A stretch of DNA of 64,000 nucleotides from Alphaproteobacteria bacterium (GCA_015062445.1 SUUQ01000005.1:1668-65667), one strand, 5' to 3'; shown: positions 5,657-46,445, counted from the first letter of the stretch. Numbers and translations are program-made. The notes: a model not told the origin generated them from the letters alone.

Positions 5657-6048
5657 ATTGCCCCCCGTGCTAAGAATTAAAGAAAACCACCAAAAATTTG
5701 GTGGTCGGGAAGTTAGAAAAATCATAAACACGAATGACCCTGTGGCCTTTGGTAAAAACCTGTTGTATAGCCACAGCTTCCCGACACGCAATTGTCGGGA
5801 CAAAAACAACGGCACAAATGTGCCGACATTTTATGTCGGATTCAGTGCAATAAATCGCACTGCGTGTTTATGGGATTTTCTAAGTCCCGAATCCACATCC
5901 CTGCAGATTCAAAAAAATTATAGCACATTACCCCTTCAAACACAAGGTGAACCGATAAATATTAAAAAAGTGCCGATTTTTTTCTTGCAATTATGTGTAT
6001 CATGCCCCACAATCGTCTGGCCTTAAATTTTTATTAAAAGGAGAACTT

Positions 6049-9241: not shown

Positions 9242-11281
9242 ATGAAATTCAAGAAAATCATACGTATACTGTTAAACATAATCTTTTGGGCCTTTGTTGC
9301 GGGTATTGCATCTTTGGCGGTGCTGGTTTTGATATATGGTAACGATTTGCCTGATTATAAAAAGTTGGCGACCTATGCACCACCGGTTGCGACCCGTCTG
9401 TATGCGTCTGATGGTTCACTGTTGATTGAATATGCCGAAGAACGCCGTGTCTTTATTGATTATGCAGACATGCCGCCCCAGTTGGTAAATGCGTTTATTG
9501 CCGCCGAAGACCAAAACTTCTGGACGCATCCCGGTATTGACGTCCAGGGTATAATTCGTGCAGTTGCCAATAATGGGCTGCGAATGATGGGGTATGATAC
9601 AACATTGTCTGGCGCATCGACCATAACGCAACAGGTTGCCAAGAATTTCTTTTTAACATCCGAACGCACTATTTCCAGAAAGATAAAAGAAGCGATATTG
9701 GCCCTGCGTCTGGAACGTGCATTTTCCAAGCAGCATATTTTAACCCTGTATATGAATCAGATATTCTTGGGGGCCCGTGCATATGGTGTTGGGTCTGCTG
9801 CCTTGATGTATTTTAACAAGCCCGTATCAGAATTAACATTGGCAGAATGTGCATTTTTGGCATCATTGCCCAAGGCACCAAACAATCGTGACCGTGCAGT
9901 TGAACGTCGCAACTATGTGCTTCGCCGCATGCAGGAAGAAGGTTTTATCACACCGGACCAGGCGGCCGCTGCATCTGCAGAAGAGTTAAATATCAACAGC
10001 GGTTTTACTGCCCAGATGCAACCTGAATTTCAATATTTTGCCGAAGATGTTCGTCGTCAGTTATTGGGGACACTTGGTCGTGAAACATTGTATAACCAGG
10101 GGCTGTACATCAAGACGACAATCGTACCTGAATTGCAGATTGCGGCCTCGAACGCATTGAACAAAGAACTGGATGCGTATAATGCGGGGCGCAACGAAAA
10201 ATTACAAGGGGCGATTATCGCAATGAATCCGCACACGGGGCGCATTGTTGCGATGACTGGTGGTCGTTCATTTCGTGACAGTTCGTTTAACCGTGCCACC
10301 CAGGCATACCGACAAATTGGTTCAACGATAAAGCCATTTGTGTATCTGGCGGCATTGGAACGTGGGTACAGTCCACAAACAATGATATTGGATGCGCCGA
10401 TTGTTGGCTGGCGTGAAAATGACACATTATGGAAACCTGAAAATTATGACAAGAAATTTTTGGGTGATGTCCCACTGCGTCTGTCGTTGGAAACATCTCG
10501 CAATGTTCCGACCGTGCGCTTGGTCGAGCAAATTGGAACAGAAAACGCAATCGAGGCCGCCCAACGTTTTGGTGTATATCCATCAGACATGTCGAACATG
10601 AATTTATCAATGGCATTGGGTTCTGGTGAAACGACACTGGAAAAATTGGTTTTGGGTTATTCTGCCTTTATAAACGGTGGTCGTGTGATTCAGCCAAAAT
10701 TGGTTGACTATATCGCAGACAGATATGGTCGTGTTATTGATGGCACACCAACACAGATTATAGAATGGTCGCCTGATTTACTGCCACCTGAAACGGTGAT
10801 AGAGTCTGAACCCTTGTCTGACCCGCAAAGTCTGTATCAAATGGTTTCCATTTTACAGGGGGCGGTTGAACGTGGCACTGGCAAACAGGCCCGTGTTCCT
10901 GGCCACACCATTGCGGGCAAGACGGGCACTACAAACGATGTCAAAGATGTATGGTTTGTTGGTTTTTCCAAGAATTTAATTGCGGGTGTTTATCTGGGGT
11001 ATGACACACCAAAGTCATTGGGCCGTGGTGCGGGGTCGCACATGGCGGCACGTGTTTTTGCAGATTTTATGCGTGTTGCGCTGGCAAATGAAAAGAATCA
11101 GCCGTTTTCTGTGCCAGATGGTATGACGTTTATGCGTGTAAATCGCCGCAGTGGCGCATCTGCATCCTCAGACCCATCTGGCACGATTATACAAGAGGCA
11201 TTCAAACCAGGTCAAATGCCGAATCCTGCGCCGTCCCAGGCATCCAGTGCCCAGGGGCCGGTTGTTGGTGGTGTTTTCTAG
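9242..11281 (+). CDS. mrcA: Penicillin-binding protein 1A (bifunctional transglycosylase/transpeptidase)
   Basis: N-terminal TM; GT51 motif 'EDQNFWTHPGID'; transpeptidase motifs 'STIKP', 'SRN' and 'KTGT'. Confidence 0.9.
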   Translation: MKFKKIIRILLNIIFWAFVAGIASLAVLVLIYGNDLPDYKKLATYAPPVATRLYASDGSLLIEYAEERRVFIDYADMPPQLVNAFIAAEDQNFWTHPGIDVQGIIRAVANNGLRMMGYDTTLSGASTITQQVAKNFFLTSERTISRKIKEAILALRLERAFSKQHILTLYMNQIFLGARAYGVGSAALMYFNKPVSELTLAECAFLASLPKAPNNRDRAVERRNYVLRRMQEEGFITPDQAAAASAEELNINSGFTAQMQPEFQYFAEDVRRQLLGTLGRETLYNQGLYIKTTIVPELQIAASNALNKELDAYNAGRNEKLQGAIIAMNPHTGRIVAMTGGRSFRDSSFNRATQAYRQIGSTIKPFVYLAALERGYSPQTMILDAPIVGWRENDTLWKPENYDKKFLGDVPLRLSLETSRNVPTVRLVEQIGTENAIEAAQRFGVYPSDMSNMNLSMALGSGETTLEKLVLGYSAFINGGRVIQPKLVDYIADRYGRVIDGTPTQIIEWSPDLLPPETVIESEPLSDPQSLYQMVSILQGAVERGTGKQARVPGHTIAGKTGTTNDVKDVWFVGFSKNLIAGVYLGYDTPKSLGRGAGSHMAARVFADFMRVALANEKNQPFSVPDGMTFMRVNRRSGASASSDPSGTIIQEAFKPGQMPNPAPSQASSAQGPVVGGVF

Positions 11282-23030: not shown

Positions 23031-24332
23031 TTATTTTTTACCACCAGATTTTATAATATTGTACCATGTTTTTGTTGTTGCTTTGGTTTTATTCCACAGT
23101 GTTTTTACATCGCTTTTCAGCATGTCGCCCATTTTTGTGTCGATTGTCCCACCCAGTTCACTGGCGATTTTCATTGCATTCTTGGCCAGGTACATTGCGA
23201 TTGCAACAATCAACAGTGTGACAAAGAATCCAGGGTTATCAAACTGGGGGATTGTGTCAGTTGTTCCAAAATCAACAATGTATCCCAACAGTGCCACGCA
23301 AATTGCGATAACGATACTTAACACTATAAAGTGCAGGGCCGCATTAATAAACCGTGAAATTTGCGATTGCAGTGATTCTGGTTTAAATATTCCCATAAAT
23401 CCGTTAAAAATATCACCTGCGATACCCTTGTACGATGTTTTTCCGATTGTTTCTGCCAGTGCAGTAAATGGCAACATAATAATTCCCAAGAATAAATCTG
23501 CAATCACACCGAACGCAATAAACGCAAATCGCCAGCTTAGCATTATAAAGCATATAATCAGTGTTACACCGGCGGCGAATCCAAAAACACTGTTTCCGAC
23601 TGACATGCCAATCCATTTCCACCCCAGTGCCACCACGGTATAGCAAAACCCAGCCAATCTGGTTGGTACGCACATAATATTTGCAGCATGTTCTGCATCA
23701 ATCAGGTTTTCTGGCAACGTGTGATTTGCGGCATATTCATGAATTGCCCCGCATGTATCTGGCAGGTTAATTCCCGCCGTCTGTGTAATTGCATTCAGAA
23801 TTGTATCTGAAATGATTGTTCCCATTTGCAGTATTGGTGACATAACAAACATAAAAGTTTTTGCTGGTCCAATCATCAGAATGCCTGTCCAGACTGCGAC
23901 CATAACACCCCTTTTTACGATTTCCTTGATTTTGTCTTCTGGTTTACTTTGACCTGTGATGATTGTGTATGCTTCGAACCCAATCCAGAACCCGTATGCA
24001 ATGATAATAAACAGTATCACAAAGCGCACCAGTGAAGTGTCCAGCACATGTGCTACAAATGAAAACGCATTCATAAATGCCAGTCCAATTTTTGCTTCGA
24101 CGGGGACAAAGTCTGCCACGATTTGTTTTTGTGCATTGTCTTGGAAGTATTGCACATCATTGCCCAGTGTTTCTACAAATCGCTGGTGATTATTTTCTGT
24201 TGCCCATGTGCCGTATTCGCCAACATCTGCCATCGGCAGGTTTGATTCTGCACAGACCCCTGGCGACATCAGACAGATTGCCATCGCAATGACAGGCACG
24301 ATTTTTGATAAAAAATTTTTTATCACATTCAT
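23031..24332 (-). CDS. Polytopic membrane protein, member A of a 5-gene paralog array (VirB6/TrbL-like?)
   Basis: Signal peptide, at least 6 TM segments, Cys pairs in loops, and a Lys-rich C-tail 'KTLWNKTKATTKTWYNIIKSGGKK'. Its start overlaps the stop of the upstream gene. Confidence 0.6.
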   Translation of the reverse strand: MNVIKNFLSKIVPVIAMAICLMSPGVCAESNLPMADVGEYGTWATENNHQRFVETLGNDVQYFQDNAQKQIVADFVPVEAKIGLAFMNAFSFVAHVLDTSLVRFVILFIIIAYGFWIGFEAYTIITGQSKPEDKIKEIVKRGVMVAVWTGILMIGPAKTFMFVMSPILQMGTIISDTILNAITQTAGINLPDTCGAIHEYAANHTLPENLIDAEHAANIMCVPTRLAGFCYTVVALGWKWIGMSVGNSVFGFAAGVTLIICFIMLSWRFAFIAFGVIADLFLGIIMLPFTALAETIGKTSYKGIAGDIFNGFMGIFKPESLQSQISRFINAALHFIVLSIVIAICVALLGYIVDFGTTDTIPQFDNPGFFVTLLIVAIAMYLAKNAMKIASELGGTIDTKMGDMLKSDVKTLWNKTKATTKTWYNIIKSGGKK

Positions 24333-25819
24333 TACTTTTTACCCATTGCCTTGGAAATTTTTTCTGTTATTTGCACAGGTACATGCCATATTTTTTGTCC
24401 CAGGTCATGTATCCATGCACCAAAGTCAAACTGTTCACCTGTCGCGACATTTGCATTTTCGCCTGGTATCGGCAGTTTCACACCGCCCGCCGGCAACAGT
24501 TTATCGATTTTCGGACTGATTGCATAATAGTACAAACAGAACAGGCACACCATCATCAGCAAGAAATTCCATCCGTCTTTCATAAAATCGAATGCCCCCG
24601 GGTATTTTCTTTCTACTTCGGCCCGCCGTGCTGTAAAGCAGTTTTTGAATGCATCTTTATCCATTTCACCATTTGCCAGTGCGACCTGTTCACAGGTTTT
24701 GAAAACATTCATGACACTTAACGTTTGTGCATCTGGATTTTCTGGAACCTGGCCCATCATTGGGGGCAGTATTGCGCTGTAGCCGTCATTTGGACCTGGC
24801 ATAAATGTGTCTGCAGTATATGATACAGTTGCGTATATGACCAGTACTTTCAATGTGATTGCCACGATTCTTACTGCAGACGATATCAGCATCTCTAATG
24901 CCTTGCTGACCAGTCCGCTGGCCTTGGCCCAGGTTCCTTCAAATGCACTTGCCGCCAGCAGCAGTGGCATAAAAATGATTAAGAAAATTAACTTGAACAC
25001 CACAGACAATATTTGAAAGAATAAATCAAATCCGATAATCATGAACATTATCACCAATACCAATCCTGCAATCCATGTGAATGCGCCCCCGCCCATCCCC
25101 ATCCATGCATAGTTCATCATTGCAAAACCACCTGCGGCCCCGGCCAGCATAACAGAGTTTATATTTCCCATCACGCACATAAAAGGGTTCATAACCGGGT
25201 TCAGTATATCTGACGATTCTGTATTATGACCTGATGCCAACGCATTGCATTGTGCCGCATCTGTCACCCCAGTTGCCGCCATTGACAGTTCGGCCCCGAC
25301 ATACAGCACGGGCGTGATGGTGATTTGTGAAACGGTCTTCAGTGCATCTGTGCCGCCCATTCCCAGCGCCCCCATCAGAACACCAACAAATATGATTCTG
25401 ATGCCTTGCTTCCATATTTTTTCGAACCATGGGTGGAATTCAATTTTATGTTCCTTAGGTTCCAGTGTTGCTGTCTGCTTTGCGTGATTAAATATGTATT
25501 GTACGGTGTGTATAAAGATAAAAATACCGAACCCGATAACCATCAAAATCCACAGGTTGTCCACCATCAACGTCCAGAATTTTTCTGTTGCGCTGCCCAG
25601 TACACCGAATAAATCTGCGATATATCGACACAGGAAACATCCGTTTGCCGTTGCAATGTCGCCATTTTCAACACCTGCTGCGACCAAGAAATTATCCATG
25701 CTGGTATATGTTATTGCTGCCCCACCAATTGACGAAGATACATACCAAATCCCCAGCCCCAGTGCAACCAGTCCCATAACTATTCTGACAGCGATTAAGA
25801 TTAATTGTGCTTTTAACAT
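24332..25819 (-). CDS. Polytopic membrane protein, member B of the array
   Basis: About 10 TM segments. Shares the 'P(L/F)xxLxxxxFxGxW' TM motif ('PLLLAASAFEGTW') and a Lys-rich tail with its paralogs. Coupled TAATG-type overlaps on both sides. Confidence 0.6.
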   Translation of the reverse strand: MLKAQLILIAVRIVMGLVALGLGIWYVSSSIGGAAITYTSMDNFLVAAGVENGDIATANGCFLCRYIADLFGVLGSATEKFWTLMVDNLWILMVIGFGIFIFIHTVQYIFNHAKQTATLEPKEHKIEFHPWFEKIWKQGIRIIFVGVLMGALGMGGTDALKTVSQITITPVLYVGAELSMAATGVTDAAQCNALASGHNTESSDILNPVMNPFMCVMGNINSVMLAGAAGGFAMMNYAWMGMGGGAFTWIAGLVLVIMFMIIGFDLFFQILSVVFKLIFLIIFMPLLLAASAFEGTWAKASGLVSKALEMLISSAVRIVAITLKVLVIYATVSYTADTFMPGPNDGYSAILPPMMGQVPENPDAQTLSVMNVFKTCEQVALANGEMDKDAFKNCFTARRAEVERKYPGAFDFMKDGWNFLLMMVCLFCLYYYAISPKIDKLLPAGGVKLPIPGENANVATGEQFDFGAWIHDLGQKIWHVPVQITEKISKAMGKK

Positions 25820-27009
25820 TATTTGCTGTCCTTTTTATCGCCACCTGACACGATTGTTTTTCCAATTTTAACAGTTGTGTCGACCGCATCTTTGACCAGT
25901 GTTATCATGTCGTTTGCCAGTTGTTCACCCATATCTTTTTTCTCGGACACATCAAATGCCGCCAGAATCATTTTTGTGATTTGTGGAATTTGTCCTTGGA
26001 TATAGTTTAGCACATATACCAACACAATCGCACTCATAAACGTCATTGCCTGCAGGTTTTCTGTATTCAAATCCGCTTCGAATATTTGTCCTGTGGTAAT
26101 TGCGTTCATCAAGTCGGCTGCCGACGCATCTGGCGCAGAAAAGAATTTTGCGATAATGACCATAATGACTGTGTATGTCAGTACCACTGACCCCAACGTG
26201 ACAATTGCATTAATCAGATTTTTAATTTGATTAACACCGACCCCTGACCCCAGTTTTCCAATCCATTCTGGCACATGTTCTGCGCCTTTGAATGCGAATG
26301 TCACCAGCGAGATTGGAAAGAAAAACGCAAAGAAAGCCATCGCCACAATTGCATCTGCGAAATAGCAACAATATCTAAAGAACAGCTTAAAGAATCCCCA
26401 TGCTAAATACAGTCCGATAAAGAACAAAATAATATGTTTAATCAAACTACCTGGTCCCAACAGTGCCTGCCATGAAAATGCCTGGTCCATCATTGCGATT
26501 CCCAGTTTTATGTATGCCTGGAATTGTGTGATTGTTTTTTTCATCAACAGTATAATTTTGTCCCGCAGTTGTGGTCTGAAAAAACCATCTTCGGTCATTT
26601 TTTCTGGTTGGTATGTTACTTTTTCTTCGACCGCATCTGTGTCCATTTGTGTGATTGTCTGGGTGTATGTCAATGTGATTTGTGCAACTGGCTCAAACGT
26701 AATAGTTGTTAAAATCCGTGGCAGCATAACCCCCATCCCCATCAGCGCAATTGCGACAATGCCATTTATAAAAACTTTTTGAATTGATTTTTCATACAGT
26801 GTATCTGCGAAATCATTTTGGAAATTTTTCCAAATTGCATTAACCATGAATACTGCAAACAGCATCACAAACAGTACAACACAAATTTGGCTGAATGTGC
26901 CGTATATTTCTGCAGCTGCAACAGATATGATTTGAAACAGTCTGTCAAACACCCCACAGCCCCAACACTGCACTGCATTTTCCACCAAAGATGATGCGAA
27001 ATTATTCAT
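25819..27009 (-). CDS. Polytopic membrane protein, member C of the array
   Basis: Multi-TM; 'PISLVTFAFKGAEHVPEW' motif; Lys/Asp tail 'GGDKKDSK'. Overlaps its neighbours by 1 nt. Confidence 0.6.
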   Translation of the reverse strand: MNNFASSLVENAVQCWGCGVFDRLFQIISVAAAEIYGTFSQICVVLFVMLFAVFMVNAIWKNFQNDFADTLYEKSIQKVFINGIVAIALMGMGVMLPRILTTITFEPVAQITLTYTQTITQMDTDAVEEKVTYQPEKMTEDGFFRPQLRDKIILLMKKTITQFQAYIKLGIAMMDQAFSWQALLGPGSLIKHIILFFIGLYLAWGFFKLFFRYCCYFADAIVAMAFFAFFFPISLVTFAFKGAEHVPEWIGKLGSGVGVNQIKNLINAIVTLGSVVLTYTVIMVIIAKFFSAPDASAADLMNAITTGQIFEADLNTENLQAMTFMSAIVLVYVLNYIQGQIPQITKMILAAFDVSEKKDMGEQLANDMITLVKDAVDTTVKIGKTIVSGGDKKDSK

Positions 27010-28274
27010 TATTTTTTAATCCATCCTGCGGCGGTTCCGATTGCTTTTCCTGTTTTTTTGATGTTTCCCCAAATTGTGCCTGCGTCAGATTTTACACTGT
27101 TGTACAGTCCATCCATTCCGCCGCCGATATATTTCTTTAATTGTTCTTGTGTCTTGTCATAAATTTTGAACATCAAATACAGTGTTAATATTGCCGACAT
27201 CCATATCAAAGAATGTTGTCCAAAACCTGCGCCAGAATTTGCGATTTGTGGAACATTGCTGGCTGCACTGCCACCTGCGGCGACGACAAAAGTTGATACA
27301 TTTTCCATAAACAGTGCCCGTATAACTGCCAGATTTATACACAGCATAAATGCACACGCAATCATTGTCACGATTAATTGTTGCAGTGCCTTGGTAATGC
27401 CGCTGAATGCGGGCCAAACATCGAACCATTTATCACTGGGTTTTACAACATATGTCAGTACATAGAATGGATACAGAATTAATTGCATCCCGAAATTAAA
27501 TATCCCCTGGATAATCAGCAGTGCCATAAACAGATTGCTGCTGACGAATGTCAGTATTAAGATAATTCCTGTCACGATATTCATAAAATCTTGTCCGCCG
27601 TGCGGTATCAGTGTCATCAAACCTTTCAGTCCCTGGGTCAGACTATCAAATCCCCGCTTGATAATTTGATTGTTTGCATGTGACAGTTCTGATACGGGCT
27701 GTACCAGAAATTCACACGATTCCTGTGAAATCCAATCGTGTGCCAGAATGTCCGGTGGGCACTCAACTTTTGGTGGCTGTGCACCTGCTGCGTTAATTTG
27801 TTCTGTGATGTGACTGGTGTAAATCGCCCCCAGTTCCAAGAATGGATTAACCAACCACTGTGTTAAAAACACTGGTTTCATCTGCAACAAAAACAGTGCG
27901 GCAATAATTGCCCGCCCGCCTGATTTTAATGTGTTTTCGACAATCTGTGTCCCGGTAATTTTTCCATCGTAAATTTCGCCGCCCCCTGATATTCCCAGAA
28001 ATGACAGCCACTGTTTTGGAAAGTACATTTTTACCAGCGAAATCGTAATTGTAATCCCCAAGAATATCCAAACAAACGCATAGATAAAACCATTGCCGTT
28101 TCCGACAAAGAAATCATAAATTCCGGTTGCTACCAACATCATCGCATCCAGTACCATTGGAACGAACGGCGCCAGGTTCAGTGAATCGATGATATTTCCT
28201 GCATATGCCAAATCTGGGCACAGCATTGCCACCGCCAAACACAACCCAAAAAAAACTTTTTTCAGTAAATACAT
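27009..28274 (-). CDS. Polytopic membrane protein, member D (first gene of the 4-gene operon)
   Basis: Signal peptide 'MYLLKKVFFGLCLAVAMLCPDLAYA'; 'PFYVLTYVVKPSDKWFDVW' motif; tail 'KKTGKAIGTAAGWIKK'. Confidence 0.6.
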   Translation of the reverse strand: MYLLKKVFFGLCLAVAMLCPDLAYAGNIIDSLNLAPFVPMVLDAMMLVATGIYDFFVGNGNGFIYAFVWIFLGITITISLVKMYFPKQWLSFLGISGGGEIYDGKITGTQIVENTLKSGGRAIIAALFLLQMKPVFLTQWLVNPFLELGAIYTSHITEQINAAGAQPPKVECPPDILAHDWISQESCEFLVQPVSELSHANNQIIKRGFDSLTQGLKGLMTLIPHGGQDFMNIVTGIILILTFVSSNLFMALLIIQGIFNFGMQLILYPFYVLTYVVKPSDKWFDVWPAFSGITKALQQLIVTMIACAFMLCINLAVIRALFMENVSTFVVAAGGSAASNVPQIANSGAGFGQHSLIWMSAILTLYLMFKIYDKTQEQLKKYIGGGMDGLYNSVKSDAGTIWGNIKKTGKAIGTAAGWIKK

Positions 28275-38946: not shown

Positions 38947-41679
38947 ATGTCAGAAAATACAAATGAAGTAATTGAAACACGTGTTCCCCAGTCTTCATTG
39001 GAACACGAAATGCGAACCAGTTTTTTGGACTATGCGATGTCGGTTATTGTTGATCGTGCATTGCCTGATGTTCGTGACGGGTGCAAGCCTGTGCATCGCA
39101 GGATTCTGTATGTTATGAACGATGTTGCGCCTGCGACCAAACCGACTGTCAAGTCTGCCCGTATTGTCGGTGATGTTATGGGTAAGTACCACCCACATGG
39201 CGACAGTTCTATTTACGAAGCGATGGTTCGTATGGGTCAGGATTTTTCTATGGGTGAAATGTTGGTTCAGGGCCAGGGTAACTTTGGTTCTCGTGACGGG
39301 GACAAGGCGGCGGCTATGCGCTATACCGAGGCACGTTTATCCAAACTGGGTGCGTCATTAATGGATGATATGGACAAAGACACGGTTGATTGGATGCCGA
39401 ACTTTGACGGCAGCTTGCAAGAGCCAGTTGTTCTGCCGACCAAGTTTCCAAACTTTTTGGTAAACGGTGGTTCTGGTATTGCGGTTGGTATGGCAACAAA
39501 CGTTCCGACCTATAACTTGGGCGAGGTGTGCAATGGTATCCTGGCGGTATTGGACAATCGTGATATATCTGATGACGAATTGTTTACGATTATCCCTGGG
39601 CCCGATTTTCCGACTGGTGCGATGATTATGGGGCATGCCGGTGCGTACAAAGCACACACCACAGGTCGTGGTTCTATTATAATTCGTTCAAAAACACACG
39701 TCGAAGATTTTCGTGATCACCAGGCGATTATTGTTGATGAAATTCCATACCAGGTGAACAAAGCGCAGATGATTATCAAAATCGCCGAATTGATTAAAGA
39801 CAAGCGAATCGAAGGCATATCTGAAATTCGTGACGAATCATCCAAAGAAGGTCTGCGAATTGTAATTGAATTAAAACGTGATGCGATTGCAGATGTTGTG
39901 CTGAATCATTTGTTTCAGTATACAGAAATGCAGACCAGTTTTCCGGTTAATATGATGGCATTGAATCGTGGTCGACCGATGTTGTTTAATGTTCGTGGTG
40001 TGCTGGATGCCTTTATAGAATTCCGTGCCGAAGTTATTCGTCGTCGCACCATCTTTGATTTGAACAAGGCACGCAATCGTGCGCATACGTTATTGGGGTT
40101 GTCTGTTGCTGTTGGTAATCTGGACGAAGTTATTGAATTGATTAAATCCAGTGCCAATCCAGAAGATGCGCGTACCGCCCTGGTGTCCCGTGGTTGGCGT
40201 GCGTCGGACATTGAATCATATATCCAATTGATTGATGATCCAAACACAGAGTATAAAGATGGCATGTTCTATATGTCCGAAGACCAGGCCCGTGCAATAT
40301 TGGAATTGCAACTGCATCGCCTGACGGGACTGGAACGTGACAAGATTCATGATGATTTGACATCGTTGGGTGCGACAATTCGTGATTTGTTAGAAATATT
40401 GGGCAGTCACGAACGTATTATTCAAATTATCCGCGATGAAACAACAATGGTTCGTGATAATTGGGCATCGCCCCGTCGGACTGAAATTTCCGATGCGGAA
40501 ATCGATATTGATATTGAAGACTTGATTGCTCGTGAAGACATGGTTGTAACGGTTTCCAACACTGGATATATCAAACGTGTTGCACTGGATACGTACCGTG
40601 CCCAGAAACGTGGTGGCAAGGGGCGCAATGCCATGACCACCAAAGACGATGACTATGTGGTCCAGGTATTTGTTGCGAACACGCATACACCGCTGTTGTT
40701 CTTCAGTTCACGTGGTTTGTGCTATAAATTAAAAACCTATAAATTGCCCGAGGCGGCGGCCGCTGCCAAGGGGCGTCCATTGGTAAATCTGTTGCCATTG
40801 GAACAGGGCGAAACAATCACTGCGATTTTACCTGTGCCGGACGAAGATGTTGCACGTGTTGCAGAATCTGGTATTGAACACTTCTTGATGTTTGTGACTG
40901 CATCTGGCACGGTTCGCCGCAACCGGATGAGTGACTTTGACTCCATCCGTGCCAACGGTAAAATTGCGATGAAATTAGACGAAGGTGACAGCTTGATATC
41001 TGTGTTGCCGTGCAACGAAGACCAGGATGTATTCTTGTCCACATATCGTGGCCGTGCCATACGATTCCCTGTGCCTGAAATTCGTGTGTTTGCAGGCCGC
41101 AATTCGACAGGTGTTCGTGGTATCACATTGGGGCCAGACGACAAGATTATCGGCATGGCAATGTTAAACCGTGGCGAATCTGATTCGGCGGTTCGTGCGG
41201 CCTATATCAAGCAATCACGTGCGGCACGTCGTGCTGCCACTGGTATCGAAGAAGAGGTCTCTGCCGACGAAGAAGAAACAACACTGGTTCTGGACGATGC
41301 CAAGATGGCACAAATGGCTGCGGCAGAACAGTTTATCTTGACTATATCTGAAAACGGCTTTGGCAAACGTACCAGTTCGTATGAATATCGTCTGACGCAT
41401 CGTGGTGGTGGCGGCTTTACAAATATCAAACTGGGGGGCAAGAATACGGCCGTTGCAGGTTCGTTCCCTGTATCTGATGACCAAGATATCATCATGGTTA
41501 CAGACGGTGGCAAGATTATCCGTACACCTGTGTCTGATGTTCGTATTGCGGGTCGTTCGACTGCGGGGGTTACATTGTTCCGTACGGCGGATAATGAACG
41601 TGTTGTATCTGCAATTGCAATCGAAGGTGCAGGCGAAGAAGAGTCTGCTGGGGCTGCAACCGATGCAGTGTCTGAATAA
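38947..41679 (+). CDS. gyrA: DNA gyrase subunit A
   Basis: '[16 protein letters not shown]', QRDR '[20 protein letters not shown]', active-site Tyr region '[10 protein letters not shown]', and C-terminal beta-pinwheel repeats. Start at MSENTNE. Confidence 0.95.
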
Positions 41680-42753: not shown

Positions 42754-43353
42754 TTACCTAGACTTTTTATTTATCAGACTGTCTCTTTGTGATTCCAGCA
42801 TTTTTAATTTTTGCATCTGCACAGCGACTTTTGCATTTGTTGTGCTGTCAAAGTGTTTTTGTATACTGCTGGACAGATTTTCCAGTTTTTGTTTTTGTTT
42901 ATCAAATTCTTCGATTTTTTTTTCGTTCATATAAATCTGCCAGTATGCATTTTTAACCGCCGGCAGGTGATAAAAGTCATAGAACATTTTTTTATTTCTG
43001 CGAATTTTTGCATCAGGTGCATCTGCACGTGCTGCGAAAAAGGCCTCGTCAGTCAAGACGCGATTTTTGTATTTCAGATCATCGATTGCATGCTGGTTTT
43101 TCATGACCCAGTCATTTTCTGGGTGTTTGTTCAGTGAATCTCTGACCAGCAACGGCACGACAGACCGCAAACTGTCCACAGATTTACGTGTTTTCAAAAT
43201 TTGGTTTTCTGTATTGGCCAGTTTTTCCTGTATTTGCTTTTCTTTTTCGCCATACTGCACAATCAGTGTTGTGATTGTTGCCATAACTGCAAAGAACACA
43301 ACGACTTCGAAAATACCACTCAGCGATTTTTTAAAGTTTTCATATTTATCCAT
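42754..43353 (-). CDS. N-terminally membrane-anchored coiled-coil protein (199 aa)
   Basis: TM 'VVVFFAVMATITTLIV' followed by a Lys/Glu/Gln-rich coiled coil. Same architecture as the neighbour. Confidence 0.5.
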   Translation of the reverse strand: MDKYENFKKSLSGIFEVVVFFAVMATITTLIVQYGEKEKQIQEKLANTENQILKTRKSVDSLRSVVPLLVRDSLNKHPENDWVMKNQHAIDDLKYKNRVLTDEAFFAARADAPDAKIRRNKKMFYDFYHLPAVKNAYWQIYMNEKKIEEFDKQKQKLENLSSSIQKHFDSTTNAKVAVQMQKLKMLESQRDSLINKKSR

Positions 43354-43394
43354 AATTCACACCCAAAAAATATAATATCTGTATGTAAGGTTTA

Positions 43395-43575
43395 CGTCAC
43401 GAGATATCCCGTTTCACCCCGTGCCAAAAGGTTGATTCTTGGCACCCCCAACGGGAAACCGAGTGAATAAAAACCGCATGAGTTGCGTTATTAGCAACGA
43501 ATGACTGGTTTGCGTCACAAGGTTCGCCGTTTCACCCCGTGCCAATTGTTTGATTCTTGGCACCCCCAACGGGAA
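43395..43575. repeat. Two ~63-nt direct repeats (43395-43457 and 43513-43575) comprising the 3' 18 nt of tRNA-Glu plus 45 nt of its 3' flank
   Basis: 'cgtcac..gtttcaccccgtgccaa..ttgattcttggcacccccaacgggaa' occurs twice with a 118-bp period. The second copy is the genuine tRNA 3' end. Confidence 0.85.
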
Positions 43576-43632
43576 TCGAACCCGTGTTGCCAGAATGAGA
43601 ATCTGATGTCCTGACCGCTAGACGATGGGGGC
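43558..43632 (-). tRNA. tRNA-Glu (anticodon read as CTC)
   Basis: A 75-nt cloverleaf on the minus strand: GCCCCCA acceptor, GTCT/GGAC D-stem, anticodon loop TTCTCAT, T-loop TTCGATT, terminal CCA encoded. Confidence 0.8.
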
Positions 43633-43669
43633 AAATTTTTAACTGTTTCTGTACATAATATACAAAATC

Positions 43670-44500
43670 TTGCGATTTTCAAATGAAACTTTTCCCTTGC
43701 AGCATATTTTTTTATGTCCTAGGATAATTGTCGTTATGGCTATTTCTATACGCAGTTTTTTTACAAACATCATTTGTGGTTTGATACCTTCGCGCGATTT
43801 GCGACATCGTGTTCGTGTGTTTTTGAATAATCCGTCTTGTCGATTGTACATCAGATTTGTTCGTGAATGGGCGGAAAAAAACCGTGGTGGTGTACGCAAG
43901 ATAAAGATATCGTTGGGTTGTGGATGTCAAAACTTGGTTGTTTTGTTAAACGATTCAGATGTGTTTAAATTTCCATTGCATTCTGGTGGTAACGAACTTG
44001 CCCAGCGCGAGTTGCGAATTTATTCTGCATTGCGCACGATAACGCCAATTCCGATGCCGTCCATGGAAATTATCCATTGGCGCGGTCTGGTCGTTCGCAG
44101 ATATGAATTTATTCGTGGTAAATTATTGTGTGATTTTCCCACAGACAGTGTGTTGGTGCATCGTGAACATTTGGCGAAACAGTTGGCAAATTTCATGTAT
44201 ATCATTGGTTGCGCTGACCCGACCCAGATACGCGATATCAAGCCGTCAAAAACATCGCGTCCGGGGTTCATGTATGGGTGGTTTCACAATGATATTGGTC
44301 AGAATTTTCTGATGGATGACGACATGAACATTATTTGTTTTCTGGATTGGGAAAATACCCAGTTTTGTGATTTTCGTGAATCCTTGCGCCATGCCGAGCG
44401 CTTTTGGAACAAGAACGGCTATCGTGGTCTGATGACGGATGTTTTGTCGCAGTATTCCAGGTTGTACTATTCGTCTCAGGGGCAGTTTTTAGGTGAATAA
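43670..44500 (+). CDS. Aminoglycoside/choline-kinase-like phosphotransferase-family protein
   Basis: Brenner motif 'HNDIGQNFL' and Mg-binding 'LDWENTQF' (ID[F/W]E). A likely alternative start is MAISIRS at 43736. Sits between two tRNA genes. Confidence 0.5.
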   Translation: MRFSNETFPLQHIFLCPRIIVVMAISIRSFFTNIICGLIPSRDLRHRVRVFLNNPSCRLYIRFVREWAEKNRGGVRKIKISLGCGCQNLVVLLNDSDVFKFPLHSGGNELAQRELRIYSALRTITPIPMPSMEIIHWRGLVVRRYEFIRGKLLCDFPTDSVLVHREHLAKQLANFMYIIGCADPTQIRDIKPSKTSRPGFMYGWFHNDIGQNFLMDDDMNIICFLDWENTQFCDFRESLRHAERFWNKNGYRGLMTDVLSQYSRLYYSSQGQFLGE

Positions 44501-44542: not shown

Positions 44543-44926
44543 ATGCAGATGACAGATATAGTAAATGAACTTGTAAACATTGCACAACAAGAATTGGTAA
44601 AACATGCACAAAGATTGGATCGTTTGGTTGCGTCAATGAATGCGGTCGATTTTGACCCTGGTGTAGAATCGGTCCAATCGGTCCGTGAAATGATAGAAAA
44701 TCAATCGAAACTGTATGATGTTGTTTTTGATATGCTAAAAACCGCATTGGAACAGCATCGTAATTTAATGTTGGCCATGGGCACCATGAATCAGTCTGTC
44801 CAACAGGATATCAATGCCACTACCGATTCAATTGATGCGATGTTGCATGCACTTGAACAAATGTCCAAGGCCGCTATCGAATCAATTGATTTGACGTTGA
44901 GTACACTTGAAAAAATGTCGCGTTAA
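44543..44926 (+). CDS. Hypothetical protein (127 aa, helical)
   Basis: ORF with RBS 'acaggagatgcag'. No family recognised. Confidence 0.4.
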   Translation: MQMTDIVNELVNIAQQELVKHAQRLDRLVASMNAVDFDPGVESVQSVREMIENQSKLYDVVFDMLKTALEQHRNLMLAMGTMNQSVQQDINATTDSIDAMLHALEQMSKAAIESIDLTLSTLEKMSR

Positions 44927-44929
44927 AAA

Positions 44930-44960
44930 ATATCCACCGCCCCCACGGGCGGTTTTTATT
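44930..44960 (+). terminator. Rho-independent terminator
   Basis: 'ccgcccccacgggcgg' followed by a T5 run. Confidence 0.65.
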
Positions 44961-44967
44961 TACACAA

Positions 44968-45210
44968 TCCGTGACGTATACCAAATAAAAAATGCCCCCT
45001 GTGGGCATTATTTATTTTGGTTGGGGCGCACACAGGGGAGTGGGGATGTTCCCCACTAGTGTTTTGGGAAATCTGTGATTTTTCGAAACACGTACAAAAC
45101 ATTGATAATGTTTTGGTGTACAATCACTGTAACTGATTGTACAAATCGTGACGAATAGCAAAATAAAAAATGCCCCTTGTGGGCATTGTTTTATTTTGGT
45201 TGGGGCGCAC
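44968..45210. repeat. Two ~65-nt direct repeats (44968-45031 and 45145-45210): the tRNA-Gln terminator hairpin plus the tRNA 3' 14 nt
   Basis: '..cgtgacg..aaataaaaaatgcccc(c/t)tgtgggcatt.ttttattttggttggggcgcac' occurs twice. Only the second copy continues into the full tRNA. Confidence 0.85.
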
Positions 45211-45270
45211 GGATTCGAACCATGATAAAGAGAACCAAAATCTCTTGTCCTACCATTAGACGACACCCCA
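45197..45270 (-). tRNA. tRNA-Gln (anticodon TTG)
   Basis: A 74-nt cloverleaf on the minus strand: TGGGGTG/CGCCCCA acceptor, anticodon stem AGAGA/TCTCT with loop TTTTGGT, T-loop TTCGAAT, CCA encoded. Resembles E. coli tRNA-Gln. Confidence 0.8.
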
Positions 45271-45506
45271 AAAGCAACATTGATTATAATTATCTTTTGT
45301 AAATTTGCAATAACAAATTTTTGTTTGGCTAAAACCGTGATAGGTTTCTGGTTATGTCGCACAAAAACGGTGGTCAAAAAACGACATTGTTCCTGGTGGG
45401 TATTTTATCACAAATCTGGCAAAAATCACAGAAGAAAAATGTCGTTTTTTGACCACCGTCAAAAATCGACATTGGCAAAGGTATATAAAACCCAGGGAGG
45501 ACAAGG

Positions 45507-46445
45507 GTGAGGGCTCTTTTTTACAGTGCAATTTTTTCGATTTTATGCACACCGTGTTTTGCAGACGTATTGCCATTGGATGATGCGTTGCGTTCCACAT
45601 ATCGTGCGTGTGTTGGTATTGACGACCAGTTAAACGATTTGCGTCGCATGGCGGGCATCAACACTGCGATAACTGCGGCTGGTACTGCGGCAGGGGCTGG
45701 TGCGACTGTGGTTGGTATTGTTAAAACGTCCAAGGATAAAAAGGCAGAATCGCTAGAGGCCATATTAAATGAAATCAAAGAAATGACACAAAATTCTGCC
45801 CCGATGACCACAGATGAAATTGACAGATTTATGTTTGAATTTAATGCGTACTATGAAACTGCGCTGAAAAGCACTGATTCCATACAATCAGAACTGGACA
45901 AGACGGTTGCCCAGTCTAAAAAGTTGGGTAATTGGCGAACAGGTTTACTGGCGGGCGGCACAGCCACCAACATTGCCGGTGCGGTTATTGCCAGTTCGAA
46001 CAAGGTTGACGGTGATATTTTTGTTCAAATAGAGCTGTGTAAAACATCTGTTGCGAATTTGCGCAACTCGATTATCCAGGCCCGTCTGAACGGCCAAGAC
46101 ATAACCGAGGCCGAGGAAATCATCCGTTTATGTGGCGAATATGATTATGCAGATTTGTCGAAAATTAATACCAAGGCCCGTGGTGCGACAATTTCGTCTG
46201 CGATTGGTGCGACCACTGGTGCGGTTGGTACGGTACTGTCGGCCAGTGCGAATTCCCAGAAAGTGCGTGACGATAATACAGACACGGGCAAACATCGTGA
46301 AAAGAATCTGAACACGGCATCGAATATAATGGCGGGTGCGACGACTGCGGCCTCTGCGACGGCGACCATATTTAATGCGACCCAAATTGGTGCGATACGT
46401 CGTGTATCAGACATTGCAGAAAAATGCACGGAGGTATTGAAATGA
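45507..46445 (+). CDS. Secreted helical Ala/Gly/Thr-rich protein (312 aa)
   Basis: Signal peptide 'MRALFYSAIFSILCTPCFA'. Repeated 'AGTAAGAGATVVGIV'-type segments. Its stop overlaps the next start (ATGA). Confidence 0.6.
   Translation: MRALFYSAIFSILCTPCFADVLPLDDALRSTYRACVGIDDQLNDLRRMAGINTAITAAGTAAGAGATVVGIVKTSKDKKAESLEAILNEIKEMTQNSAPMTTDEIDRFMFEFNAYYETALKSTDSIQSELDKTVAQSKKLGNWRTGLLAGGTATNIAGAVIASSNKVDGDIFVQIELCKTSVANLRNSIIQARLNGQDITEAEEIIRLCGEYDYADLSKINTKARGATISSAIGATTGAVGTVLSASANSQKVRDDNTDTGKHREKNLNTASNIMAGATTAASATATIFNATQIGAIRRVSDIAEKCTEVLK

Follow-up and report, generated by a model that had tools for sequence, protein, structure and literature searches.

Genes and Features of the Window

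The DNA analyzed here, a stretch of 64 kb that is referred to below as the window, is bacterial chromosome with a G + C content of about 43%, and its closest relatives among named records are those titled "MAG: Alphaproteobacteria bacterium". Its genes include gyrA (38947-41679), a MerR regulator gene, leuS, an RND efflux operon and cell-wall genes, and many of its open reading frames (ORFs) belong to no Pfam family. Two tRNA genes, tRNA-Glu and tRNA-Gln, were detected by ARAGORN and Rfam, both on the minus strand, and an APH-like protein of 254 aa is encoded between them. In the tRNA regions no Rfam family other than these two tRNAs was found, even at E ≤ 1. The positions of the tRNA genes and of the features that follow them are collected in Table 1.

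Upstream of tRNA-Glu a block reading GCAAGG(G)AAAA(G/C)TTTCATTTGAAA (window 43683-43705) is kept in all the lineages compared, with homologous sites in the related loci L011, L031 and L038, and the rest of the intergenic DNA around it is not conserved. From its sequence, this block may correspond to the -35 region and an upstream element.

Table 1. Features at the tRNA-Glu and tRNA-Gln loci, in window coordinates.
Feature	Position	Strand	Remarks
199-aa gene downstream of tRNA-Glu	42754-43353	-	no known family (Pfam)
Candidate promoter in F2/X	-35-like GTGACG 43395-43400; -10-like TATTAT 43372-43377	-	17-nt gap
Glu F2, second trailer copy	43389-43439	-	about 82% identical to F1
Glu R', dead copy of the last 18 nt of tRNA-Glu	43440-43457	-	attR-like position
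Glu S, single-copy spacer	43458-43506	-	49 nt
Glu F1, trailer copy adjoining tRNA-Glu	43507-43557	-	51 nt; ends in TTGTGACGCAAACC
tRNA-Glu 3' end, last 18 nt	43558-43575	-	repeat copy 1, "core"
tRNA-Glu(CTC), intact	43558-43632	-	ARAGORN; Rfam RF00005, 60 bits
Candidate tRNA-Glu promoter	43655-43682	-	TTGAAA-16-TATTAT; adjoins the upstream block kept in all lineages
Gln F2, second trailer copy	44958-45017	-	terminator hairpin 44991-45009
Gln R', dead copy of the last 14 nt of tRNA-Gln	45018-45031	-	
Gln S, single-copy spacer	45032-45135	-	104 nt; several perfect inverted repeats
Gln F1, trailer copy adjoining tRNA-Gln	45136-45196	-	with CGTCACG; intrinsic-terminator hairpin 45169-45187
tRNA-Gln 3' end, last 14 nt	45197-45210	-	repeat copy 1
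tRNA-Gln(TTG), intact	45197-45270	-	ARAGORN, Rfam

Direct Repeats at the Two tRNA Genes

An earlier note on this DNA had described a 63-nt unit that occurs twice, 118 bp apart, downstream of tRNA-Glu, and this is correct (43395-43457 and 43513-43575, 55 of 63 positions identical). When extended without gaps the repeat reaches 69 nt (43389-43457 and 43507-43575), of which 60 (87%) are identical at the same spacing of 118. Its composition is also as described, that is, the last 18 nt of tRNA-Glu (TTCCCGTTGGGGGTGCCA, tRNA sense) followed by 3' flank, the flank or trailer being about 51 nt long in the extended repeat. Between the copies there is no mismatch in the first 26 nt or in an internal 19-mer, and each of these sub-motifs occurs twice in the 64-kb window, the chance expectations being 0.01 and 0.05. 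In tRNA sense the order is tRNA (TTCCCGTTGGGGGTGCCA), the trailer copy F1 (51 nt), the spacer S (49 nt), the dead tRNA copy R' (18 nt), the second trailer copy F2 (51 nt), a further 35 nt and the ATG of the 199-aa gene. The islet between the repeats, F1 + S, measures 100 bp and is non-coding.

The same phenomenon had been claimed for tRNA-Gln and was confirmed there. Its repeat (45136-45210 and 44958-45031) has 68 of 72 aligned bases identical with five gaps at a spacing of 178, and the unit joins the final 14 nt of tRNA-Gln to a trailer of about 60 nt, in which there is a strong canonical terminator hairpin. The Gln islet, again F1 + S, measures 165 bp and is likewise non-coding. At both loci one repeat copy is the true 3' end of the intact tRNA and the other is a fragment, and the fragments begin in the T-loop (Glu) or the T-stem (Gln) and run exactly to CCA. 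Furthermore, the Glu region is present on nine independent contigs from metagenomes (JGI, ENA), and on eight of these the Gln region is present too, in all cases with 0 mismatches; therefore, both arrangements are no assembly artefact, and they are real and fixed in the window species.

The heptamer CGTCACG/CGTGACG stands near the distal end of each trailer copy, the tRNA-proximal Glu copy reading CGTCACA, and its orientation relative to tRNA-Glu is opposite to that relative to tRNA-Gln. At the Glu locus it falls within the block TTGTGACGCAAACC, which is both the left base of the hairpin described below and the repeat bounding a deletion in the related locus L039. In the whole window the heptamer was found 16 times as against 6.35 expected from shuffles, an excess that could come from the context of codons, from a motif for methylation or restriction, or from a binding site.

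Several further features of the islets were considered. F1 can pair with the tRNA-Glu 3' end in the window (GTGCCAA/TTGGCAC and CCGTT/AACGG), and the resulting tRNA 3' end/trailer hairpin was rejected as a conserved feature, being strong in the window, partly kept in L035 and absent in L038. A small ORF read by eye in S + R' was discarded as well, its frame and start codon not being conserved over the three lineages with the insert, and so was a promoter TTGACG/GTGACG-17-GCTAAT in F1 + S, which has a poor -10 with no A at position 2. The site GTGACG-17-TATTAT (43400-43372), from its sequence, may offer a promoter-like site for the 199-aa gene (ORF 42754-43353). Because R' matches the tRNA 3' end exactly over 18-19 nt, it was also considered as a primer-binding site or a guide of a retroelement, CAST or TnpB-like system; this was rejected, there being no reverse transcriptase, transposase or scaffold, and the duplicated trailer would be left unexplained. 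The IHF consensus WATCAANNNNTTR is matched at six places in the whole window, three of which lie inside the two islets in tRNA sense (43425-43437, 43543-43555 and 45095-45107, minus strand), and none was found in the islets of the relatives; as evidence for attP arms these putative sites are a lead only.

The Gln spacer contains two perfect inverted repeats, AAAACATT/AATGTTTT (45096-45103 and 45107-45114) and TGTACAATCA/TGATTGTACA (45117-45126 and 45134-45143), which in sequence resemble operators or the binding sites of recombinases. A stretch of about 40 nt in the same spacer (45073-45110) is about 86% identical to an intergenic site of L034 (9004-9046) with no tRNA-Gln nearby, so some of the spacer may be long-standing regulatory DNA of the chromosome and not foreign.

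The tRNA-Glu Site in Related Lineages

Relatives were found with the 199-aa protein, gyrA and the APH-like 254-aa protein as anchors and gave loci from about nine related lineages, which are roughly equidistant (gyrA DNA about 81-83% identical, star-like trees). A comparison of this junction in related genomes, as the earlier note had proposed, yielded five lineages with an empty site and two with a homologous insert, one of the two being a species that is polymorphic for it. The empty lineages, which lack F, S and R', are L011, L031, L034/36/37, L042-46 and L040/41. In insert-free relatives the 199-aa gene starts 25-84 nt past tRNA-Glu; the distance from tRNA-Glu to the next gene is 34 nt (to the ATG) in L011, 39 nt in L031, 84 nt in L034/36/37 and 25-52 nt in L042-46. 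In L040 and L041 the tRNA-Glu(CTC) gene (5906-5980) is inverted with respect to its conserved neighbours and lies 20 nt before the APH-like gene.

An insert homologous to that of the window, with the same order and size, is present in L035 (F1 49 nt, S 48 nt, R' 19 nt and a short F2 remnant) and in L038 (F1 48, S 48, R' 19 and F2 47 nt). The Glu unit is therefore 115-118 bp long in three divergent lineages, each of which has a sister lineage lacking the insert, and three independent decays to this same size are unlikely. The loci L038 and L039 belong to one species, being about 98% identical with an identical anchor protein, and L039 has a single Glu trailer of the F1 type, without the S + R' + F2 that are present in L038. 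The difference comes to 114 nt and is bounded by a 10-nt repeat, GACGCAAACC, which ends both trailers; because of this boundary it looks like a short-repeat deletion that left a "solo" trailer, not like an excision at tRNA ends. In other words, the difference between the L038 and L039 alleles is not the one that recombination between the two core repeats would give.

In each of the three lineages R' is identical to the 3' end of the resident tRNA-Glu, although the acceptor variants differ (GGGGGT in the window, GGGACT in L035 and GGGAGT in L038). If the islet were ancestral, R' should not match the acceptor variant of each lineage, yet it does, and in tracking the resident variant it is unlike a neutral ancient fragment. 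The match may be due to recent separate insertions in each lineage, to gene conversion between the copies or to selection on R'. In addition, F1 and F2 are closer to each other within one genome than between genomes, and the two trailers of L038, beside R' and beside the tRNA, are only about two-thirds alike.

The tRNA-Gln Site in Related Lineages

At tRNA-Gln the 14-mer GTGCGCCCCAACCA is present in exactly two copies each in the window, L031 and L038/L039, and three non-homologous inserts share a bracket of 14-16 nt there. The window insert measures 178 bp and that of L031 189 bp, and the insert of L038/L039 is longer, at 1127-1147 bp. No empty tRNA-Gln site was seen among the loci compared. 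Because these inserts are unrelated and lie at one boundary, the tRNA-Gln 3' end appears to have been hit repeatedly, always at the same boundary.

The largest of them is an islet of 1.13 kb between 16-nt repeats of the tRNA-Gln end (L038 10432-11544, L039 10406-11538). It encodes an 81-aa GIY-YIG protein directly after the tRNA (L038 11192-11437, minus strand; PF01541, E = 1.5e-16) and a 163-aa ORF of no family (10500-10991, plus strand). The islet begins with CACTTCGCC and ends with CATTTCGCC, and a hairpin-rich stretch lies directly after the tRNA. The sequence that follows R' in L038/L039 matches by blastn the trailer adjoining the live tRNA-Gln of L031 (about 90% over 106 nt), which indicates that the new islet entered exactly at the CCA end and displaced an older trailer.

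A degenerate 3' remnant of tRNA-Gln (GGTTCGAAATTCGTTAACTATCGTCAACCA) was found in L011 (6400-6466), together with a trailer that resembles Gln F2 of the window (93% identical, as against 88% for Gln F1). This remnant lies at the far side of an island with genes for Mrr (Mrr_cat) and an AAA ATPase (AAA_15), and in the sister contig L014, in which positions 1-142 are the matching edge, the island also carries a large serine recombinase of 511 aa.

Recombinases and Further Copies

The earlier note had advised looking for a cognate integrase elsewhere, and none turned up among the 30 window ORFs scanned against Pfam, which contain no integrase domain; the Glu and Gln islets have neither an integrase nor coding capacity. 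The large serine recombinase at the edge of the L014 island is the only recombinase seen in the related loci. The viral contig L047 carries a Phage_integrase gene beside a 30-nt partial tRNA-Glu 3' end of the L035 acceptor variant, which suggests that a tRNA-Glu 3' end is used as an att site. The L047 fragment differs from that of the window in its boundary, and the contig contains no F or S sequence.

Outside the tRNA-Glu locus the F and S motifs were found neither in the window nor in about 405 kb of related DNA. The Glu flank 19-mer TTGGCACGGGGTGAAACGG occurred in no viral contig, two genome contigs and ten metagenome contigs; these 12 matches were considered as relatives of the flank and dismissed as due to chance, and both of those that were inspected in full fall within genes. 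The 23-mer of S described below had no match in viral contigs, and a blastn search with the islets against phages and plasmids returned only tRNA-Glu genes or nothing. A search for other copies of the flank thus produced nothing beyond chance matches, and the idea of a small repeat family seeded with CGTCACG is not supported: in the DNA and collections searched, flank and spacer were seen at their own locus alone, the two loci share nothing beyond the heptamer, which is in excess over the whole window and stands in opposite orientation relative to the two tRNAs, and a dispersed family of the REP or MITE kind was rejected for want of copies at unrelated loci.

Probable Insertion at tRNA 3' Ends

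These arrangements are best read as insertion hot spots at tRNA 3' ends, at which serial insertions were followed by decay, so that the remaining islets are cargo-less (probability about 0.58). What the analysis shows is repeats, empty sites, inserts of homologous and of unrelated kinds, and an older trailer that was displaced; what we infer is the recombinase, the order of events and the part of S as a terminator. DNA would be inserted site-specifically at the tRNA 3' end, likely by a tyrosine integrase that is encoded elsewhere or has since been lost, and each insertion would bring a new tRNA 3' end with its own trailer. Because the inserted DNA would supply a fresh 3' end, the tRNA would stay intact, and the earlier 3' end and trailer would be pushed downstream and left as a dead fragment in the attR position. 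What remains after cargo loss would be F1 + S, that is, the 100 bp of the Glu islet and the 165 bp of the Gln islet. Flank would be found within the repeat because the inserted DNA starts with a trailer homologous to the displaced one, and the source of such a trailer may be serial insertion of related elements or an attP that captured the host trailer. S, with its hairpin and U-run, would most likely end or process the tRNA-Glu transcript, and F2/X could give a promoter-like site for the downstream gene.

The earlier note had called the arrangement att-scar-like, and this reading largely stands, with partial support from the data. The empty tRNA-Glu sites in five lineages, the polymorphic species and the unrelated inserts at the tRNA-Gln boundary support it; the lack of an integrase among the 30 window ORFs and the L038/L039 indel, which is bounded by a 10-nt repeat and not by tRNA ends, count against it. 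Moreover, several features of the Glu locus do not fit a simple scar, namely its constant size and order, a hairpin with an invariant 23-mer, the matching of R' to its own acceptor variant and the likeness of F1 and F2 within genomes.

The Spacer Hairpin and a Possible Structured Trailer

The Glu spacer S holds the 23-mer TTCGTTGCTAATAACGCAACTCA (43479-43501), which is invariant in all three insert-bearing lineages, and forms the hairpin GTTGC-TAATAAC-GCAAC followed by GGTTTTTAT. It is part of an extended 27-bp hairpin (43452-43529, minus strand) that runs from the 3' half of F1 through S to the first 6 nt of R'. By RNAalifold and explicit pair counts over the three lineages, 91% of the cells of this hairpin are paired and 4 pairs are compensatory, and equally good hairpins arose in 8 of 500 shuffles. 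Its G-U pairs fit the tRNA-sense strand, and the few variable positions around the invariant 23-mer change in pairs. The upper hairpin with GGUUUUUAU is present in the three lineages, and three pairs of the lower stem covary. The compensatory changes point to long-term selection on the structure rather than to a neutral scar, and this conservation, seen in three sequences only, is suggestive, not proven. The S hairpin is weak for a terminator, with -10.7 to -14.3 kcal/mol and z-scores of -1.2 to -2.6, and a consensus scan did not call S as an intrinsic terminator. As folded, the upper hairpin with GGUUUUUAU after it resembles an intrinsic terminator, though a rather weak one, and the modeled structure suggests that S most likely terminates or processes the tRNA-Glu transcript.

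Consequently, the Glu arrangement might be an old, vertically inherited structured 3'-trailer module that arose by a single local partial duplication and was then shaped by selection, repeated loss, and gene conversion or unequal exchange, its long hairpin terminating or processing the tRNA-Glu transcript and separating the downstream gene. The 27-bp hairpin with its 4 compensatory pairs among three sequences and its G-U pairs in tRNA sense would be expected of such a module, and so would the invariant 23-mer and U-run in S, the greater closeness of F1 and F2 within than between genomes, the identity of R' with the resident variant in all three lineages and the restriction to a single copy at one locus; loss by short-repeat deletion, which it needs, is seen directly in L039. 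Nevertheless, we consider this explanation rather unlikely. At least 4 or 5 independent complete losses would be needed, both trailer copies included, and a module offers no reason for a copy of the acceptor 3' strand with CCA. The architecture at tRNA-Gln, which brackets unrelated inserts, points to insertion, and the hairpin is weak for a terminator and known from three sequences.

Other Explanations

It is improbable, though several of the Glu features would suit it, that the unit of about 116 bp (core + F + S) is a miniature, non-autonomous element consisting of attP only and moved in trans by an integrase encoded elsewhere, its tRNA-end copy staying matched to the host since mismatched copies could not integrate or would damage the tRNA. 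Constant size and order in three scattered lineages, presence and absence between strains of one species (L038/L039), an R' that matches the host variant, conserved blocks in S including a 5-7-5 inverted repeat of the kind used by recombinases, and IHF-consensus sites in F1 and F2 of the window are all in its favor. However, no free or second copy was found in the searched collections, the sole polymorphism seen is not the product of core-by-core excision, the nine contigs of the window species are all identical, and the IHF matches are absent from the islets of relatives; in addition, a circle of 116 bp would presumably be a poor recombination substrate with no obvious route of transfer. The broader proposition that the 115-118-bp Glu unit is not a decaying scar, and is instead a self-maintaining miniature element or RNA module of the tRNA-Glu(CTC) 3' end, is a long shot as well. 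If it were true, movement or copying of the unit in trans would account for the patchiness of its distribution, for its unvarying architecture and for the polymorphism between strains, and the unit would be essentially a cargo-less attachment site with a conserved hairpin whose tRNA-end copy co-evolves with the host acceptor stem.

Plain local duplication by replication slippage or unequal exchange, with neither recombinase nor function, is very improbable for either locus, even though the repeats are short and close together, a deletion between 10-nt repeats does occur at the Glu locus and no integrase was found. Of the 118 nt at Glu the repeat takes up 69, and of the 178 nt at Gln about 75, and S is left unduplicated, so at least two events would be required at each locus. 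Such duplication also stands against the same 14-16-nt boundary of three unrelated Gln inserts and against the conservation of S across lineages whose gyrA DNA is about 82% identical. Finally, it is hardly credible that the tRNA-Gln insertions are the work of a free-standing nuclease gene of the GIY-YIG type, which would home to the tRNA 3' end and bring a replacement end, the 178-bp islet of the window being the remainder after loss of the nuclease gene, since this idea, prompted by the 81-aa GIY-YIG protein (PF01541) directly after the tRNA and between the 16-nt tRNA-end repeats of L038/L039, rests on one gene, whose product is a bare catalytic domain with no DNA-binding part and no NCBIfam match, and the window islet shares no sequence with the L038/L039 islet and nothing links GIY-YIG to the Glu locus.

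Comparison with Known Systems

Insertion at tRNA 3' ends, the reading preferred here, can be compared with several known systems. Direct repeats of partial tRNA genes, attL and attR, reportedly flank the prophages, integrative and conjugative elements (ICEs) and genomic islands that integrate into tRNA genes, and accounts of them are attributed to Reiter in 1989 and Williams in 2002. The window loci are like these in having an intact tRNA with a downstream direct fragment of its 3' end, from the T-loop or T-stem to CCA, in the empty site of relatives (Glu) and in the different inserts at the same boundary (Gln). They are unlike them in that only 100-165 bp of non-coding DNA lie between the repeats and no integrase was found, and in that the repeat extends about 50-60 nt into the trailer with 82-94% identity.

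Partial tRNA genes occur as attR remnants at integration sites (PMC9897764), and in the tycheposons of Prochlorococcus islands serial integrations push older elements and partial tRNAs outward (bioRxiv 10.1101/2020.12.28.424599). As in such serial arrays, newer insertions at tRNA-Gln push older material away (L038/L039, L031) and degenerate remnants occur (L011). The likeness, one of arrangement, ends there: no integrase or replication genes of the tycheposon type were seen, the islets are far smaller, and the phylum is a different one.

The window islets also resemble the CIMEs in being att-flanked DNA without an integrase at an integration site, and they differ from them in being about 100-165 bp long with no parent element known. 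The CIMEs of Streptococcus thermophilus are flanked by att sites, lack a recombination module and persist at the site of a larger element family; they are kilobases long and derive from known ICEs.

With the intrinsic terminators and 3' external transcribed spacers of tRNA operons the Glu locus shares the hairpin in S, which is preceded by an A-tract and followed by a U-run and has compensatory changes in its lower stem, and Gln F1 and Gln F2 each hold a canonical terminator. However, the Glu hairpin is weak, its base takes in part of a dead tRNA copy, and over 23 nt its loop and upper stem do not vary, a constancy that terminator function does not need.

The phenomenon is thus an ordinary one with a modest twist, and it is well supported that a known kind of tRNA insertion footprint is present in an unstudied clade. 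In a clade of uncultured Alphaproteobacteria about which little is known, two tRNA genes now stand out as hot spots of insertion, and insertions can shrink to about 100 bp of non-coding DNA and still keep the diagnostic repeat of the tRNA end. In annotation, recognition of this footprint avoids the calling of pseudo-tRNAs and helps to locate islands in metagenome-assembled genomes. The wider interest is limited to two features of the Glu islet, the conserved hairpin and the dead copy matched to the tRNA, which hint that some "scars" are kept by selection or are still mobile.

Other Observations

A few further observations concern the surroundings of these loci. The tRNA-Cys of L029 has an ordinary terminator and no fragment. 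Four consecutive large ORFs of 433, 495, 396 and 421 aa without a Pfam match lie on the minus strand at 23031-28274 of the window, and in L031 three ORFs without a family likewise follow one another, with lengths of 396, 483 and 434 aa, the first of them truncated where the locus ends. A 26-nt inverted repeat (45367-45392 and 45434-45459), whose arms are 96% complementary with 41 nt between them, lies in the interval from the tRNA-Gln promoter to the ORF 45507-46445. In addition, the ORF 44543-44926 contains two tandem 54-nt units, 80% identical, at window 44812-44919, and because the units lie inside the ORF the small protein has an internal repeat of 18 residues.
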